A stretch of DNA of 64,000 nucleotides from Candidatus Latescibacterota bacterium (GTDB lineage: Bacteria; Latescibacterota; UBA2968; UBA8231): positions 288,001-352,000 of the forward strand of contig CBDAOB010000003.1 in the NCBI GenBank assembly GCA_965197905.1, read 5' to 3'. Both the position numbers and the translations under genes were made by a program. Shown piece after piece: positions 7,108 to 61,429 of this stretch (positions are counted from its first letter, which is position 1; every line of letters starts with the position of its first letter). The notes below the pieces were generated by a model. The model worked only from the letters and a program-made list of their open reading frames with translations, was not told the DNA's origin and made no database searches.

Positions 7108-7163
7108 CTTACTGCCCGAAGGGCCAAGGCGCCATCGGCGCCGTAGCGTAAACTGCGCTGTTA
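7108..7163 (-). repeat. attC-like site (family B, partial); unoccupied copy of the target of the intron at 12408-13156
   Basis: 7147-7163 (cgtaaactgcgctgtta) is identical to 13157-13173. Confidence 0.75.
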
Positions 7164-11488: not shown

Positions 11489-11533
11489 CGTCTAACGCCA
11501 TTCCGTCGAACGAATCGTTTTAGTCATTTCTGA

Positions 11534-11609
11534 TAATGATTTCGCCGTGCCCGAACCGCGAAGCGGTTGGGCGAAGGGCGTAGCCCGAGGCCGGGACACG
11601 GACGTGTTA
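11534..11609 (-). repeat. attC-like site (family A)
   Basis: tcgccgtgcccgaaccgcgaagcggtt...cacggacgtgtta. Confidence 0.8.
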
Positions 11610-11638
11610 TAGGTCGTTGTGTTTCTATTTGATTCATG

Positions 11639-11944
11639 CTATTTAGTTGCAGAGCGCGGTCGGACTTCTCGACTTAGGCGTTCTGCAAGCGCATCCTCCG
11701 CTTGATCGAGCTCATAGTCCATTTGAAGACCAAGCCAGAACTGGGGTGACATGTCGAAGTAACGGGCTAAACGCAATGCCGTATCGGCCGTAACACCTCT
11801 CTTGCCCAAGGCAATCTCGTTGATTCGGCGCGGTGGTACGCCAAGGGCCAGTGCCAACCGGTTCTGACTGAGTTCCATTGGCTTGAGAAATTCTTCCAAC
11901 AGGACTTCGCCGGGATGTAATGGGGTTATTTTCTTCTTTGCCAC
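11639..11944 (-). CDS. higA: HigA antitoxin
   Basis: HPGEVLLEEFL, RINEI..GKR..TADTALRL, FWLGLQ. Confidence 0.93.
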   Translation of the reverse strand: MAKKKITPLHPGEVLLEEFLKPMELSQNRLALALGVPPRRINEIALGKRGVTADTALRLARYFDMSPQFWLGLQMDYELDQAEDALAERLSREVRPRSATK

Positions 11945-11953
11945 GGTAGCCTC

Positions 11954-12235
11954 CTAGTGATAATCTGCAATTTTCACGTTGTAGGCGTCACCGCCTTGCC
12001 AATCAAAGCAGATGCGCCATTGGTCATTGATTCGAATACTGTATTGTCCAATTCTGCCGCCCCGCAGCTTCTTTAAGCGATTTGCCGGCGGCACCCTCGG
12101 ATCGTTCAATGTCATCGACCGGTTTAGCATACGGAGTTTGCGAAACGCAACGGATTGAATGGCGCGCGGCAATTTTCGTGAGCCTTGGCGCGAAAAGATG
12201 CGTTCAGTCTCCCGATCGCGAAATGACCTGATCAT
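11954..12235 (-). CDS. higB: HigB (RelE/ParE-type) toxin
   Basis: MIRSFRD..., PPANRL, GQYSIRINDQWRICF, DYH. Confidence 0.92.
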   Translation of the reverse strand: MIRSFRDRETERIFSRQGSRKLPRAIQSVAFRKLRMLNRSMTLNDPRVPPANRLKKLRGGRIGQYSIRINDQWRICFDWQGGDAYNVKIADYH

Positions 12236-12407
12236 ACCACAATTATATAACGCACTACGTTTAACGCAACCCGTTATGACGATGACATGCCTTAAAGTTG
12301 CGAACCAGTGTTTTCGCAATGACCTATGACGTTATGCCGGTTTGCGAACCTGGACGAGTAACAGAAGGCAGGTTGCCCGAAGGGTCGAGGCGCCGCAGGC
12401 GCCGATG

Positions 12408-13156
12408 GTAGGGTCGAGAACTGGCGCGCCAGCCTTAGGGTTCGGTGGGTTCCCCATGGCTTTCGCCATAGCCCTCAGTCCGACTCCCATCGCTACGTTT
12501 CCAGTTCCCGCCGCCTCAAACCGGACGTGCGGATCTCCCGCATCCGGCTTCCCGACGAACGTCACATCCAGGCACACGCCACAAGGACTTCACCTGGTAG
12601 TCAAGCTGCTTCCGATGCATACTAGTCTTACTGCTGGAGGCAATAGGCTCACGCCACTCTCCAACCCTCTGCACTTCCGCAGCATGTCCGAAGTCAGGCC
12701 CCTTCCCTCCACCGGAGTTACCCGGCTTCCTCGGTACTACGCGCCTGTCCGCCACCTCATCCAGCCCAGTCTGGCCCTCGCGGGTTACCGGTTGGAGGCA
12801 CTCGCTGCTTCCACCGGATGAGGCTTCCCGTGTTGCGCCACATCTCCTCTTACACACATGCTGTCGCCACTACCCCGGCGGAACAGCTGGGTGCGCTTGT
12901 CGCTCGACTTCCCCAGCTGCAGCGGCCTTCCCTGGTTTACGGGCAGGTCGGCTTCCGCATTACACTTTTCGAGGCCTGCTCAGCGTTTACTCACGTTACG
13001 GCCTGTGTGCTCGCCAAGTCGCCCAAGGCGACCCTCTACACCGGAGGCTTCAGCGGCTTCGTCGCCTCCACCACTGCTCCGATTGCTACCGGCTGGAGCG
13101 ACCCTTGCCGGGTGGGATTCGCACCCACTGAAGATGTGCGCCTTAGCACGGCGCAC
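12408..13156 (-). ncRNA. ORF-less group II intron inserted in an attC-like site (site spans 12327-13173)
   Basis: 5' GUGCG at 13156; domain V gaagccggatgcgggagatccgcacgtccggtttg; 3' ...cgacccuAC at 12408; no RT ORF; removal restores a family B site. Confidence 0.9.
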
Positions 13157-13205
13157 CGTAAACTGCGCTGTTACCCGATGTGTCAAACCACCCGACGCAC
13201 CGGCA

Positions 13206-13793
13206 CTACTTCGTTCGCTCTCGAGGAACGACACGAATTGCATCATCTAGCCGGCGCGACAATGGTGATGATTTGGCACCAGACCTCGGATCAATAACCG
13301 CGATCCTGTAGTCAGCTGTGGTATCCGGGTAGAGATTCTTCCTTCCAGAGTCATTGTGCTGCATCGTTCTTGGCAACGATTCAAGAACCCTAAGAAATAC
13401 CTCTCGTTCCGCCCAAGTTCGCGAGTAACACTTTCCGACCTCAGGCGTCCATCCCCGCTGCATGAGCTCATGCTCGTGCCAGGCTGCATCGAAATCGTCC
13501 CAGACAAAGGCATTGGGAATCCTGGAAGCCCGCTGTCGCAACATATCGGTTAGTAGCCATTCCCAGTCTGGGAGAGAGCGGTCGGTTAGATATTGGCCGT
13601 TGAATCGAGCTAAATGACTAGCGACAAGCTCGTAATGATCGAGTGGCCATGAAGAGTTTGGTTTCTCGGCCACATCCTCGAGCCACAACCAATATCCGTT
13701 CTCTCGTTCCTCGGCGTGGTAACACTGGGGCGCCGAAAAGCAAGAATGGCGACTCACAGTTAGCACCGTAGGCAGTAACGGATGTGCATCCAA
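13206..13793 (-). pseudogene. Aminoglycoside-phosphotransferase-like kinase, truncated at both ends
   Basis: WLWLEDV, LARFNG, LPRTMQHND...NL...IAVID. Confidence 0.7.
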
Positions 13794-13946
13794 GTGATTG
13801 CAAGTGGTTCCTAATAAAAAGGCGTTTTATAATTCCTGCTATACTTCGCAAGAGGGTCGGGCAGATTTGAGCCAGGGACCTTGAACGCTCGGGCGATTCA
13901 CATTAGCTTAAGCTACGGAATCGAGAATACGGACCGAGGCACTGCC

Positions 13947-14318
13947 GTGCATCTTAAGCAAGAGTGGAACGCCTGCCTGGAAGCGCTCAAGCGGGGAGAA
14001 TTGACCCCCGAACGATTGCAAGCCGTGATCGACTCCGTGCCCGACGACAGTCCTGAGAAACGACAGAGTCTGCTCTTCGTTCAGACGTCTCACAACGGAG
14101 TCAATTCCAAACTGGTTGGGTACCTCCTGGTGATCAACGGCGAAGCCCAACCGGGTTCTCGCAACCGCGAGGAATGGCCCTATCGCACCGTCGCCGATGC
14201 GATCCAGGACGGCTGGCGGATCATTTCCTTCCCCAACACGGCTCTGCTGATGGATCCTGACAGCACCTACGGAATCGGCCCCGAGTTCATTCTCGAGAAG
14301 ATGGAGCCAATAAAATGA
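13947..14318 (+). CDS. Hypothetical protein (copy 1)
   Basis: GTG start after GAGG; overlaps the start of the next gene. Confidence 0.7.
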   Translation: MHLKQEWNACLEALKRGELTPERLQAVIDSVPDDSPEKRQSLLFVQTSHNGVNSKLVGYLLVINGEAQPGSRNREEWPYRTVADAIQDGWRIISFPNTALLMDPDSTYGIGPEFILEKMEPIK

Positions 14319-15202
14319 AGCAGTGGACGCACGATTGCCCGCCCACACTCACCGACACACAGGTCATCGATTTCTGTCAGAAGGGATTTGTGTTGCTCGA
14401 GGCGGTCGTCCCAGACGAGATCAATCGCCGCGTGTTTGAGTTTCTCGATGAGCATCCGGAAATGGAGCCTTCCTGCATTTTAAGCGAAGAATGGTTCGTG
14501 AAGCAGGTGCTCTGCAATCCCGAGGCCGCCGGGGCCGTTCGCTCGCTGCTGGGCAGTGACTTTCACCTTCCCGTGCTGATGAGCAACCACCGCGAGCGAG
14601 GACCCTACTGGGAACCGACGGGCTGGCACATCGACGGAAACTATAAACACGGATATGAATTGCCGTCCCTGCAGGTGTTCTATTATCCGCAGGACACCAC
14701 GCCGGAGATGGGGCCCACGGAACTGGTGCCCGGATCTCATCAGCTCCGTATGAAGCGCCGGTACATGTCCAACTTCGAAAACATCGCTACCGCCTTCAGC
14801 ACGACCGCTCCCGCCGGCTCGATCTTCATCACCATCTACCACATCTGGCATCGCCGAGGCTTCGCTACCAGCACCCGACTGCGCAACATGCTGAAGTATG
14901 TCTACTGGCGCACGACCGAGCCCACGCGGGACTGGATCATCGAGCCAGATTTCGACTTTGCCACCGCCAACTATGGTTCGCAAGAATATGGAGAGAAGAT
15001 GAAGGTCGCCATCGACACCGCGGAGATGTTCTACTGGCTATGCGGAATGCATGACCGGTTTCAGGTCATCGGCGGGCAGAGTTGGCCTAGTTTCAACCCC
15101 AGCCGCATCGACGTGCCCTATGGATTTCCCGGTCCGGTCGCCCCGGTCTCCGAAGCGCCGGGCAAACGACGGCCGGTCCAGGATGGCGCGGCTGAATCCT
15201 GA
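14315..15202 (+). CDS. PhyH-family dioxygenase (copy 1)
   Basis: WHIDG, YYPQDT..EMGPTELVPGSH, HIWHRR. Confidence 0.85.
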   Translation: MKQWTHDCPPTLTDTQVIDFCQKGFVLLEAVVPDEINRRVFEFLDEHPEMEPSCILSEEWFVKQVLCNPEAAGAVRSLLGSDFHLPVLMSNHRERGPYWEPTGWHIDGNYKHGYELPSLQVFYYPQDTTPEMGPTELVPGSHQLRMKRRYMSNFENIATAFSTTAPAGSIFITIYHIWHRRGFATSTRLRNMLKYVYWRTTEPTRDWIIEPDFDFATANYGSQEYGEKMKVAIDTAEMFYWLCGMHDRFQVIGGQSWPSFNPSRIDVPYGFPGPVAPVSEAPGKRRPVQDGAAES

Positions 15203-26153: not shown

Positions 26154-29100
26154 ATGCCACAACCTAAGCTGAGCACCGCGGAAATGTCCATGCCCACGTT
26201 CGAAACGTTGGAAGCGTGGACGCGGTCGCAGATTCAGTCTTTGATGCAGTCGGTTTTGGATGAAGAAGTGACGCAGGTGCTGGGGCGGTCGCGCTACCAG
26301 CGTCAGGCCCCGTTGGACGCACCCGGCGGCTATCGAAATGGCTACGGGAAGCGGCGGCGACTGTCCTGTACCTCGGGCACGATCGAGGTAAAACGTCCAC
26401 GCGTGCGAGGTCTGGAAGAGCGCTTCGAGAGCGCCATTCTGCCGCTGTTTGCGCGGCGTACGAAGGAGGTGGGTCAGCTGTTGCCGGAACTGTATCTGCA
26501 CGGTCTGTCCCAAGGCGACTTCGAGCTGGCGCTGCGCGGCCTGCTGGGAGCGGGAGCGCCGCTGTCGCCGTCCTCAATCGCGCGTTTGCGGGATAAGTGG
26601 ATCGTCGAATACCACGCCTGGCGCAGCCGACGGCTGGATGACCGCGAGCTGGTGTACGCCTGGGCCGACGGGATCGTGCGCCACGAGGCGCCAGAGAACC
26701 GGGTGGGATGCAAGGACCCACCAACGGGCTGTCGCAGCAGCCCGTTGAAGCTGGAGGCAGCCTGACCCTGGGAGCGCAGGGGAAGGTGGAAGCAGCCTCG
26801 ACAACGACAGAGTGGAGTGGCACCTCCAGACACTCCACGTCTGGCAAGCAAGACGGAATGGTGTAACCCGAAGTGAACCAGTGATGGAACCCCCTTTAGC
26901 GGCCCGCCAACCCAAACCTGGTGGATAAGGGTTGGTACGCAACGCACGTGGTCGGATATATGACCGACTGCGACTCTGGGGAGGTGTGATACCCACCGAA
27001 GCAGAGGCCTTGGAGAATGCCTGCGGCGTACCCAAGGCGAAGTTGCAGGGGAAAAGCTGGGCACCTCCCCCGTCAAACGGTTCATGGTGAACGTGGGAAC
27101 CGAGCCGAGTCCGACCGTTATCGGGGCAGCGCGCTGTCCGCTGTGGGGCTTGGCAAGGGACGGAGCCTCTGTAGTAGTCCGCGAGCGGGAAAGCCGCTTA
27201 CATGGCGAAGGGAGGCAGCAAGTTGCGCAGTGGGGTACTGGAAAAACAGGAGGACGCCGGTGAATGCCAGCGCTTCGTGGCCCGAGGCAGAACAAGCCCG
27301 TAATCGAGTACTGGAAATCCAGACCAAACTGCACCGTTGGGCTGTAGAGGATCGAAGCAAGTGCTTCGACGACCTGTTCAACCTGGTGTGTGACCCGGCG
27401 TTTTTGAGTGTAGCCTGGCGTCGGGTGCGCAGCAACAAGGGTGCTCGTTCGGCCGGAGTGGACGGACAAACGGCCTACTCTGTGGAGACGGAACGCGGCG
27501 AGGAGGCCTTTCTCGCCGAGGTGCGGGTTGATCTGAAGACCCGCAGTTTCCGGCCTCTGCCCGTACGCGAGCGGTTGATTCCGAAACCTGGCACAACGAA
27601 GAAGCGCCGGCTCGGCATCCCAACCGCTCGGGACCGAGTGGTCCAAGCCGCACTCAAGCTGGTGCTCGAACCGATCTTCGAAGCGGACTTCAAGCCGTGC
27701 TCCTACGGCTTCCGCCCGAATCGGCGGGCTCAGGACGCCATCGCCGAGATTCATCAATTCTGCTCCCGCTCTTATGAGTGGGTGGTGGAGGGCGATATCC
27801 GTGCTTGTTTCGATGAGATTGATCACGCAGCCCTCTTGGACCGCGTGCGTCGACGTATCGGTGATAAGCATGTTCTGAGGCTTGTAAAAGCGTTCTGCAA
27901 GGCCGGTGTCCTCACGGAACAATCGGTGTTGCAAGAAAGCACTTCGGGCACTCCGCAAGGCGGTATTCTCTCACCGCTGGTGGCAAATATCGCCTTATCC
28001 GTCCTCGACGATTATTTCACTGAGGTCTGGAGAAAGGTGGGCGCTACCTCCAGTGCGCGACAAGCGCATCGGCGAAAGGGGCTACCGACTTGTCGGCTTG
28101 TCCGTTACGCTGACGATTTCGTGCTGCTGGTGGCGGGCACCGAAGCTGCAGCGTATGACCTGCGCGACCAAGCGGGGGTGACTCTCACCCCCATGGGTCT
28201 GCACCTGTCGGAGACGAAGACCGCCATCACGCACATCAGCCGTGGCTTCGATTTCCTGGGTTTTCGCATTCAGAAGCGACGGAAACCGGGCCCGGTTGGC
28301 GCACGCATCTATACGTGGCCAAGAAAGGAATCTCTGGCCCGGTTGAAGAGCACGGTGCGCGCAGTCACGAGAACGGGTCGGCAGAGGCCGTTGAAGAGCC
28401 TTCTGCGCCAACTCAATCCGGTGTTGCGGGGGTGGGCCAACTACTTTCAGTACGGGGTGTCGAAGGCCACTTTCAACTACGTGCGGGGCTTCACTTGGCG
28501 CCGCGTAGTGCATTGGCTGCGCCGCAAGCACCCGCGCTTTAATTGGAGGAAGCTGAAACGCCGCTACCTGCCAGGATGGTGGCCCACCGAGGACGGGATT
28601 GCTCTTTACAACGTCGGCGAAGTAGCAGTGACTCGTTACCGCTATCGATCGGCGCGGATCCCTTCTCCCTGGCCTGCGACAACCGGATGAGACTCTGCGG
28701 TCACACGGCACCTTGTGGAGAGCCGGATGCGTGGTAACGCGCACGTCCGGTTCGGAGGGCGGGCCGGAGAAACCCACATCACGCGTGTGGCGCAGGGCGC
28801 TCCGGTCCGACCCTACTACGTCAAAGCCGGGCTCGAGAAAGAAAAGGCCGCTCTCCTGGTGGTCATCGGCGCCATGAGCGATGGGCGCAAGGAAGTCTTG
28901 ACGATTGTCCCAGGCTATCGCGAATCGAAGGAGTCGTGGACGAGCGTGCTGCGCGATTTGCGTGACCGCGGACTGAGCGCGGCGAAGTTGTTGGTGGCGG
29001 ATGGGCACCTGGGTATTTGGGCCGCCCTGGCGCAGGTCTGGCCGGAGACGGCGGAACAGCGGTGCTGGAATCACCGCCTCCTGAACGTGTTGGATAAGCT

Positions 29101-32774: not shown

Positions 32775-32828
32775 ACACGCCGGCATCCGAACGCCTCAGC
32801 CCAGCGACAGGGCCAATGGGACGTGTTA
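32775..32828 (-). repeat. Family C repeat (partial attC-like)
   Basis: cggcatccgaacgcctcagcccagcgacagggccaa...gtgtta. Confidence 0.6.
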
Positions 32829-60602: not shown

Positions 60603-61429
60603 GTAGGGTCGAGGACTGGCGCGCCAGCATTAGGGTCCGGTGGGTACTCCATCACTTTCGCAATGGCCCTCAGTCCGGCTCCCATCGTCACGTTTCCAGC
60701 CCCCGCCGCTTCAAACCGTACGTGAGGTTCTCCCTCATACGGCTTACCGACAACCTTCAGCTTGTAGCATGCGAGACTTGGATTGTTCGGCCCATCACGA
60801 CCGACCACATGCGACCAGGGCCGAATAATCTACCTCTCTTGGCAGTCAAGCATAGCCTGCGCAGGAGTTATCGTGATTTGTGAAGTGGTGTGGTTGGCCC
60901 TCTCGGGCATGCACCGTCACTTACCTCCTCGCTGGGCATGGTTGAAGCAGGGATCCTTCCCTCCGACCGAGTTATGTTGTCTCGATCATCCACGGTAGTA
61001 TGACCCCCTCCGACTTCTCATGGGACATCTTCCCGGATTTCACCTTCCGGCTTATACCAGAAATTACAGCGGATGTGGGCCGCTGATCCCATGAGATCTC
61101 CCTTGTTCCACCACTGACTGTCCCCACATTCCACTCCCTCTACGCCGGAGAGTCCTTCGAGGTTGCACGTCCAGATTCTTCACCTCTTCCGTGGCCTTCG
61201 CCCTCCGTGCCCTGGGCTCGGCTCTCTCTGGTCCCTTTCGGGTTAACATTACGACGCGGCAGGATTCCCTTGATGGTACGGACTATGGGGTTGCACCTCG
61301 TTCACAGAGGGATACACCGCTTCAGCACCTCCAGTCACCCGGAAGCACTGGGCGCCTGCTATGGGGCTCTCTGGTGATTACCCCAACCGGACTTTCACCG
61401 GTAAGTCAATGGCAGCTTGCAAGGCACAC
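60603..61429 (-). ncRNA. ORF-less group II intron inserted in an attC-like site (site spans 60540-61443)
   Basis: 5' GUGUG at 61429; domain V taagccgtatgagggagaacctcacgtacggtttg; 3' cgacccuAC at 60603; removal restores gaagccgggcacgg..gtgtta. Confidence 0.9.

Follow-up and report, generated by a model that had tools for sequence, protein, structure and literature searches.

The locus studied here raises the question of how a group II intron without a reverse transcriptase (RT) comes to lie inside an attC-like site of a gene cassette array. In the textbook view, the targeting of attC belongs to class C introns, which read the hairpin of the bottom strand. The intron lies in a window of 64,000 nt, by which we mean the whole stretch of DNA analysed, from a source genome (G000) of 6.69 Mb in 5 contigs. 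On the whole, we consider it probable that it is a selfish, non-autonomous and class F-related element, which finds the left arm of attC by pairing of its exon-binding sequences (EBS) and which also makes off-target hops into genes.

The intron extends over 749 nt on the minus strand, from 13156 to 12408, with the ends GTGCG...CCCTAC. The GUGYG 5' end and the AY 3' end, the catalytic triad of D5 and the bulged A of D6 are all found, and domains I to VI of the ribozyme are identified. The initial annotation had proposed a scoring with Infernal models. The Rfam model RF02003 (D1-D4-4) gives 106.8 bits against a gathering cut-off of 49, and RF00029 (D5/6) gives 39.2 bits (E 5e-6), slightly below the gathering cut-off of 40, apparently because of the long D6. 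Domain V (12518..12551, minus strand) has the AGC triad and a 5-nt loop by Rfam and fold, and the long domain VI (about 105 nt, 12408..12515, minus strand) is folded with the bulged A at window position 12414, the 7th base from the 3' end. The fold of domain I is recovered in the alignment fold, besides its support from RF02003 and the covariation of EBS1. The minimum free energy of the whole intron is not better than that of shuffles (z -1.33), so its structure rests on Rfam and covariation. No Pfam match is found in the three ORFs overlapping 12408-13156, and no RT remnant is found in domain IV, with tblastn against the RT of a sibling intron described below giving nothing better than E 0.24. 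By its boundaries, the two Rfam models and these two negative searches, the 749-nt intron without an RT that the annotation had described is confirmed.

The RT lineage, in turn, points to class F. A tblastn match on a Nitrobacter hamburgensis plasmid, with an RT identity of 46.8%, falls inside the coordinates of Ni.ha.I1, which is listed as class F/g3 in Table S2 of PMC3552965. Over 576 nt, the RNA of Ni.ha.I1 shares 66% identity with the 749-nt intron, and in the tree the RT of Ni.ha.I1 branches as sister to the RT lineage of the intron with an SH-like value of 96 (FastTree, 19 rows, with a single class F reference). In addition, the features given for classes E and F in PMC3753933 are a 5-nt D5 loop, EBS1 with EBS2, an EBS3-IBS3 pair and a long structured D6; the intron shows the 5-nt D5 loop, both EBS, the EBS3-IBS3 pair and the long D6. 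With Ni.ha.I1 the lineage thus shares the RT grouping, the RNA identity, the D5 loop and the lack of an endonuclease domain, but the D6 of the window lineage is longer and resembles that of a distant intron group. From these sequence comparisons the intron appears to be non-autonomous and related to class F (IIB-type, endonuclease-less) and not IIC, with class F set by one reference, Ni.ha.I1.

To see what the intron recognises, we turn to its three EBS, which were located by covariation with the exons and all lie on the minus strand: EBS1 (CGUAAAC, intron 216-222, window 12935..12941) pairing with IBS1, EBS2 (GUGU, 4 nt, intron 192-195, window 12962..12965), and EBS3 (G287, window 12870) pairing with the first base of the 3' exon. 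The covariation set comprised 160 RT-related loci, being the best 80 of 254 genome matches and the best 80 of 568 metagenome matches, and also took in 30 loci from relatives; 136 rows had the 5' end, and the rows are not independent, as they include multi-copy kin and four rows from the window's own genome. Among the 136 rows of this best-match set, the pairing frequency between intron 216-220 and exon -1 to -5 is 0.81-0.86, where 0.28-0.34 is expected, and further out EBS1 gives 0.63 at exon -6 and 0.52 at -7. In the window, the 5' exon ends with TAACAGCGCAGTTTACG, and the loop at 12941-12935 makes 7/7 pairs with it; the match of EBS1 to the target, as first annotated, is therefore seen both at this locus and in the covariation with exon -1 to -7 across 136 introns. 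The annotated EBS2, cagcg at 12981 (intron 172-176), has to be replaced: the sequence is present, but it is near-invariant across the lineage regardless of the target, and the covarying EBS2 lies at 12965-12962. There, intron 192-195 pairs with the exon 9-11 bases upstream at 3.24/4 vs 1.98 ± 0.07 in 1000 shuffles (n=118). G287 forms a Watson-Crick pair with the first 3' exon base at 0.84 vs 0.37 expected (n=81). Across the lineage, TA stands before IBS2 in 25 of the 50 perfect EBS2 cases.

These sequences can be set against the arms of the cassette site. The left arm of the attC-type site (13157..13176, minus strand) contains R'' (GGGTAAC, 13176-13170), IBS2 (ACAG, 13171-13168) and L'', which is IBS1 (GTTTACG, 13163-13157). 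The right part (12324..12407, minus strand) consists of the IBS3 base C at 12407, a 61-nt variable terminal structure (12407-12347), L' (12346-12340) and R' (GTCATAG, 12330-12324). The intron follows directly upon the last base of L'' (GTTTACG/C). All four boxes, R'', L'', L' and R', are thereby preserved in place, and with the intron the variable terminal structure lengthens from 61 nt to 810 nt; removal of 13156 to 12408 does restore a family B site, as had been claimed. In family B sites, the match to the EBS is the left arm of the top strand: EBS2 reads across the R''-spacer border and EBS1 reads L''. The intron accordingly lands where L'' gives way to the variable terminal structure, and it points the same way as the cassette genes. 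The identical empty 17-nt target reported at 7147-7163 is real, including the +1 C at 7146, and belongs to a family B site (7146..7163, minus strand) with a decayed right arm.

Whether such repeats are cassette sites at all was judged over the whole genome. With profiles built from the window repeats, 71 repeat sites are found, 66 of them in three clusters (C1:172-195 kb, C2:5-35 kb and C3:289-363 kb), and in these arrays co-oriented ORFs are separated by imperfect palindromes with AAC...GTT cores. Among 65 minus-strand sites, 43 could be parsed into arms. R' matches the R'' of the next site at 5.56/8 flanking bases (27 adjacent pairs), compared with 3.26/8 for the R'' of the own site and 2.96 ± 0.18 for random pairs, and one cassette is duplicated from about the G/TT crossover point. 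The complementarity of R' to the next R'' is the signature of cassettes exchanged at G/TT, and the repeats, as far as their sequences tell, appear to work like attC sites. Their geometry departs from the canonical attC: in 37 of the 43 parsed sites the right arm exceeds the left by 3-4 nt (with a slight bias of the parser towards 3), and by eye no clear extrahelical base is found in L'' of the attC-type sites. An intact IntI is encoded at C3:204281 (366.7 bits vs a cut-off of 265), 85 kb from the window array, and this canonical IntI stands apart from the arrays; the C2 array is headed only by an N-terminal integrase fragment. Array-adjacent integrases (L010:7244-7591, G002 C1:3262499 and G020 C1:1218272) have 324-327 aa and match TIGR02249 in two pieces, skipping model positions ~180-235. 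These integrases and the sites with the longer right arm possibly form a non-canonical integrase-attC pair. The window array also contains a third repeat family (D15) at 32781, 50671, 55022 and 56757, and a duplicated segment of 300 nt at 13903/17731.

The initial annotation suggested a search for further copies, and named copies at sites unrelated to attC as an observation that would speak against it. The search found 12 more copies and an RT-bearing sibling. Among the 13 copies in the genome, 12 are of full length with 99.7-100% identity and one is cut at base 700, and from this near identity we take the 749-nt intron to be recently active. Eight of the 13 are inserted in the top strand where L'' ends, directly behind the left arm of an attC-type site; five of these eight have a complete right arm and three have none, one of the three (C3:1186425) being outside the arrays. 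The remaining five copies are outside attC, in FG-GAP, ankyrin, flagellar hook-type and nuoH-like genes and at one site without a long frame, with all four genic copies in sense orientation inside open frames. The C1 host gene is the one we take to be nuoH-like, and Pfam gives no match for its upstream piece. Thus the association with attC holds for eight copies and confinement to attC fails for five: the intron prefers attC sites but is not confined to them. Every copy stands behind a match to EBS2 and EBS1, and C follows where the 3' flank is intact, with the exception of the ORF-less copy ahead of the RT-bearing sibling, which has G at IBS3. One cassette occurs in two intron-bearing copies, which we considered as proof that an occupied site recombines. 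This was ruled out, as the cassette copies differ at 6/448 bases while their introns are identical over 700, which argues for independent homing into the two.

An intron without an RT needs a source of this protein, and the genome offers one. The RT-bearing sibling (C3:1187174-1189158) is located directly behind one ORF-less copy and has an intact RT of 441 aa with the YADD motif, scoring 323 bits with TIGR04416 (cut-off 300). It is 91% identical to the ORF-less intron in D1-D3 and 87% in D5-D6, and its EBS1, EBS2 and EBS3 are the same. There are 13 RT matches in the genome, and the sibling is the sole close one, the other two types being 32% and 29% identical to it. In Thermosynechococcus elongatus, PMC2882425 (Mohr 2010) describes many ORF-less copies served by the RT of a related intron, with a preference for repeated, non-essential targets. 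By likeness to that system, the sibling RT likely helps the ORF-less copies in trans and would mobilise the 749-nt intron in this way. The probable service in trans and the preference for repeated non-essential targets are in common with T. elongatus as described there; the introns of T. elongatus are IIB1 and favour other introns and insertion elements, whereas the 749-nt intron favours attC. The ORF-less intron does not descend directly from this sibling: its D5-D6 is nearer to that of a sibling intron in another genome, G002 (92.7%). A single site holds the ORF-less copy and the sibling in head-to-tail order, flanked by hicBA and a higA fragment (L003:6426-9159, the same as C3:1186425-1189158). 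The window itself has an RT-bearing group II intron at 26676-28816 (plus strand), with a called ORF of 557 aa, which lies within a Mutator-family transposase gene and whose RT has 11 copies in the genome, and another RT-bearing group II intron, with an RT 29% identical, is found in the C1 cassette cluster (C1:175770-177800).

Among 168 genomes of the phylum, the subclade is present in three. RT-bearing siblings with the EBS1 CGUGAAU are found in G002 (three full and two 5' fragments) and G020 (one), and the RT identity of the G002 sibling is 83%. All of them (5/5 in G002 and 1/1 in G020) follow a family B-type left arm, two of the six with a full right arm. The search for the subclade in viral contigs gave 0 matches. 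More distantly, an Elusimicrobia genome has an intron (L033; RT 60% identical) whose insertion point in a canonical-looking attC is the same; this intron matches the attC arm with an EBS1 and an EBS2 of its own, and an empty sister site lies downstream. Both intron copies in that genome follow an attC left arm, and no IntI above the cut-off is found there. On the RT tree (FastTree, 72 rows), the attC habit has to have arisen twice. In a junction survey, 88 junctions had both ends and 62 candidates were dropped for short or missing flanks. About 81 of the 88 are outside the subclade, and only L033 among them is clearly attC; L086 and L165 score high with a generic attC detector, which is weak, as shuffles give about one match of at least 10.5 per 88. 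We also observe that at several loci the attC intron has lost its 3' side and the site its right arm (G000 C3:360466, L224, L225, L033:6102 and L216).

The window contains a second, divergent ORF-less group II intron of 827 nt (60603..61429, minus strand), detected by Rfam and the genome search. It occurs once in the genome, inside the L'' box of a family A site. Its loop GCACGG (61210-61205) matches the 5' exon end CCGTGC and is a putative EBS1 by complementarity and loop position. Domain I is divergent, D6 is 86% like that of the first intron, and no obvious RT partner is found in the genome, where 14 family A-type targets with a match stand empty. In G020, a 5' fragment of the same type is found behind a similar left arm. 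By these predicted pairings, the siblings, the Elusimicrobia branch and the second window intron all make use of this arm through EBS that differ in sequence. The two ORF-less introns of the window have a D6 that is 76-80% like that of a distant group (L197, L061, L054 and L206; RT 35% identical) and only 53-56% like that of one relative of their own lineage. The distant group inserts directly behind D5 of other introns (L054), which suggests that D6 was exchanged via a twintron in the history of both.

How the preference for attC arose can be approached through occupancy. We built a target score (maximum 13) from EBS1, EBS2 and TA, with a threshold of at least 11; the threshold and the three allowed registers were chosen after the sites were seen. 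All 13 occupied sites score at least 11/13. With this post hoc threshold, 8 of 9 attC targets are occupied compared with 5 of 46 non-attC targets (Fisher p 9e-6), and on the lagging-template strand only the numbers are 8/9 and 5/28 (p 2.5e-4). Counting only the five intact attC sites gives p 0.002-0.014. The same excess could be produced by ordinary homing followed by survival, with no real bias for attC: copies in genes would be purged, intergenic copies in cassette sites would persist, and the match to L'' would be a record of where the ancestors survived. This remains a live rival, because the threshold is post hoc and 38 of the 41 empty non-attC targets are within long open frames, and it agrees as well with the five off-site copies among 13 and with a lineage that is mostly outside attC. 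We regard it as unlikely nonetheless, as four of the five off-site copies persist in open frames, so that purging is not absolute, and the EBS follow the sequence of the L'' arm across three genomes and a separate branch; the three apparently non-coding non-attC targets are also empty, too few for testing. In the enrichment itself, targeting and survival cannot be separated, and survival would alter the cause of the enrichment, not the anatomy. In the reading we prefer, a selfish intron guided by its EBS, attC would be a safe and repeated landing site, with off-target hops into genes.

The strand of insertion is in line with known mobility. The intron sense strand is G-rich at all 11 loci tested (10 of the family and the second intron), which over 8 regions gives p 0.004, with weak GC skews of 1-3%. 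RmInt1 reverse splices into the lagging-strand template according to PMC8914252, and sedentary arrays are oriented with the attC bottom strand on the leading template according to PMC5371416. The G-rich sense strands fit reverse splicing into the lagging-strand template, as for RmInt1, together with this orientation of the arrays.

A further explanation is hairpin-guided targeting as in IIC-attC introns, where the RT would recognise the folded attC and base pairing would be secondary. The strong excess of attC among occupied sites agrees with it, and so does the sole empty attC-type site of top score, which has a decayed right arm. It is improbable in view of the 7-bp EBS1, the covarying EBS2 and the EBS3 that are all present, the five copies at sequence-matched sites without an attC repeat, the grouping of the RT with class F, and the insertion in the top strand and not in R'' of the bottom strand as in PMC7923331. 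As described in PMC7923331 and PMC4424553, IIC-attC introns (S.ma.I2 and relatives) encode an RT, recognise the target by an EBS1 of 3-4 bp together with the hairpin, and enter R'' on the bottom strand, so that they lie antisense to the cassettes. Like them, the 749-nt intron is a group II intron parasitising attC sites of integrons; unlike these class C elements it is class F-related and ORF-less, uses EBS1, EBS2 and EBS3, and sits in the top strand at the end of L''. The class C RT, short EBS1, lack of EBS2 and bottom-strand R'' that define IIC-attC are thus not those of the 749-nt intron. The contrast drawn in the initial annotation is upheld by the RT grouping, the 7-nt EBS1, the covarying EBS2 and the top strand, and the sense orientation, insertion within the site, EBS guidance and non-autonomy stated there are supported.

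Nearer precedents are few in the literature searched. UHB.I2 (CL1/IIB1), in PMC7923331 (Sonbol and Siam 2021), lies in cassette orientation just downstream of an attC site, and H.ha.F1/F2, in the same source, are 5'-truncated class E fragments in CALIN. As here, these are IIB-type introns in cassette arrays, and the orientation of UHB.I2 is also the same. Unlike the 749-nt intron, they are single cases, none is described there inside L'', and the source shows no targeting of a box by an EBS. PMC7923331 also cites Rodriguez-Martinez 2012 for an IIC intron of Enterobacter cloacae in the attC top strand, which is alike in strand, in sense orientation and in lying within an attC site, and differs in being class C and a single case. 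In the literature searched, with subscription papers mostly outside, PMC7923331 and PMC4424553 are the only relevant sources, and neither class F introns in attC nor an insertion at L'' is described, nor any integron association of class F. Both the L'' position and a class F-related lineage in attC appear to be new.

The neighbouring genes suggest one more possibility. The downstream cassette encodes a HigB-type toxin of 93 aa (11954..12235, minus strand; PF05015) and a HigA antitoxin (11639..11944, minus strand; TIGR02607, 108 bits), and the annotation had proposed that the intron blocks the folding of attC and splices out of the array transcript. Blocking finds no support, as both boxes stay and the pairing of the L box is not consistently lowered: the predicted bottom-strand pairing changes from 0.002 to 0.007 at the window site with the intron, rises in three and falls in two of five sites, and is already below 0.1 in four of the five when empty. 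The bottom DNA strand does carry, as the antisense of EBS1, a sequence that pairs perfectly with the L'' arm and could serve as a decoy, with a predicted pairing of ~0.56. As for transcripts, three RNA runs from one study (X6, X7 and X9) contain contigs that agree with the interior of the intron at every base (12495/12520-13105). In X6, one contig reaches its end at 13156, and no contig of the three runs covers the flank or the 13157/12407 joint; being kept as contigs, the runs give no information on strand, level or splicing, and they may include DNA. A joint of 12384-13152 in run X3 was tried as an empty allele and is read as a paralogous site, because other letters stand between. A promoter and terminator scan of 11500-14400 found none. 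A domesticated regulator, which locks the HigBA cassette by blocking attC folding and splices from the array transcript, is thus hardly conceivable: the position directly upstream of HigBA, the tandem copy between hicBA and the higA fragment and the EBS1 decoy would suit it, but the copies are near-identical and recent, those elsewhere in the arrays flank other cassettes, the R and L boxes are in place without a consistent loss of pairing, and the site has no function-specific features. HigBA looks like an ordinary downstream cassette, and its link to the intron incidental.

Returning to the selfish, EBS-guided intron, a wider reading may be put forward tentatively. Class F-type introns may have become integron specialists at least twice independently, with the divergent second window intron as a third case, through EBS2 on the end of the R'' core and EBS1 on L'', a route that the literature searched does not describe; the exposed top strand, as lagging template, would be actively preferred, and landing between L'' and the variable terminal structure would keep the site recombinogenic. 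If this is true, introns could live in cassette arrays, and perhaps move together with cassettes, while leaving them functional. Sites split by inserts of 0.75-2 kb would escape attC detectors, so that arrays may be under-called. For class F, the literature searched offers only splicing data on the activity side (PMC3753933), and the 749-nt ribozyme with its separate RT makes a ready two-part system for mobility tests. In addition, a natural attC with a variable terminal structure of ~810 nt provides a test of the length that IntI tolerates. Above all, the attC site, held to be the domain of class C introns and their bottom-strand hairpin, is probably reached here by a different intron class through top-strand base pairing, with EBS that shift in step with L'' across genomes and phyla, and this would make cassette arrays a general niche for introns.
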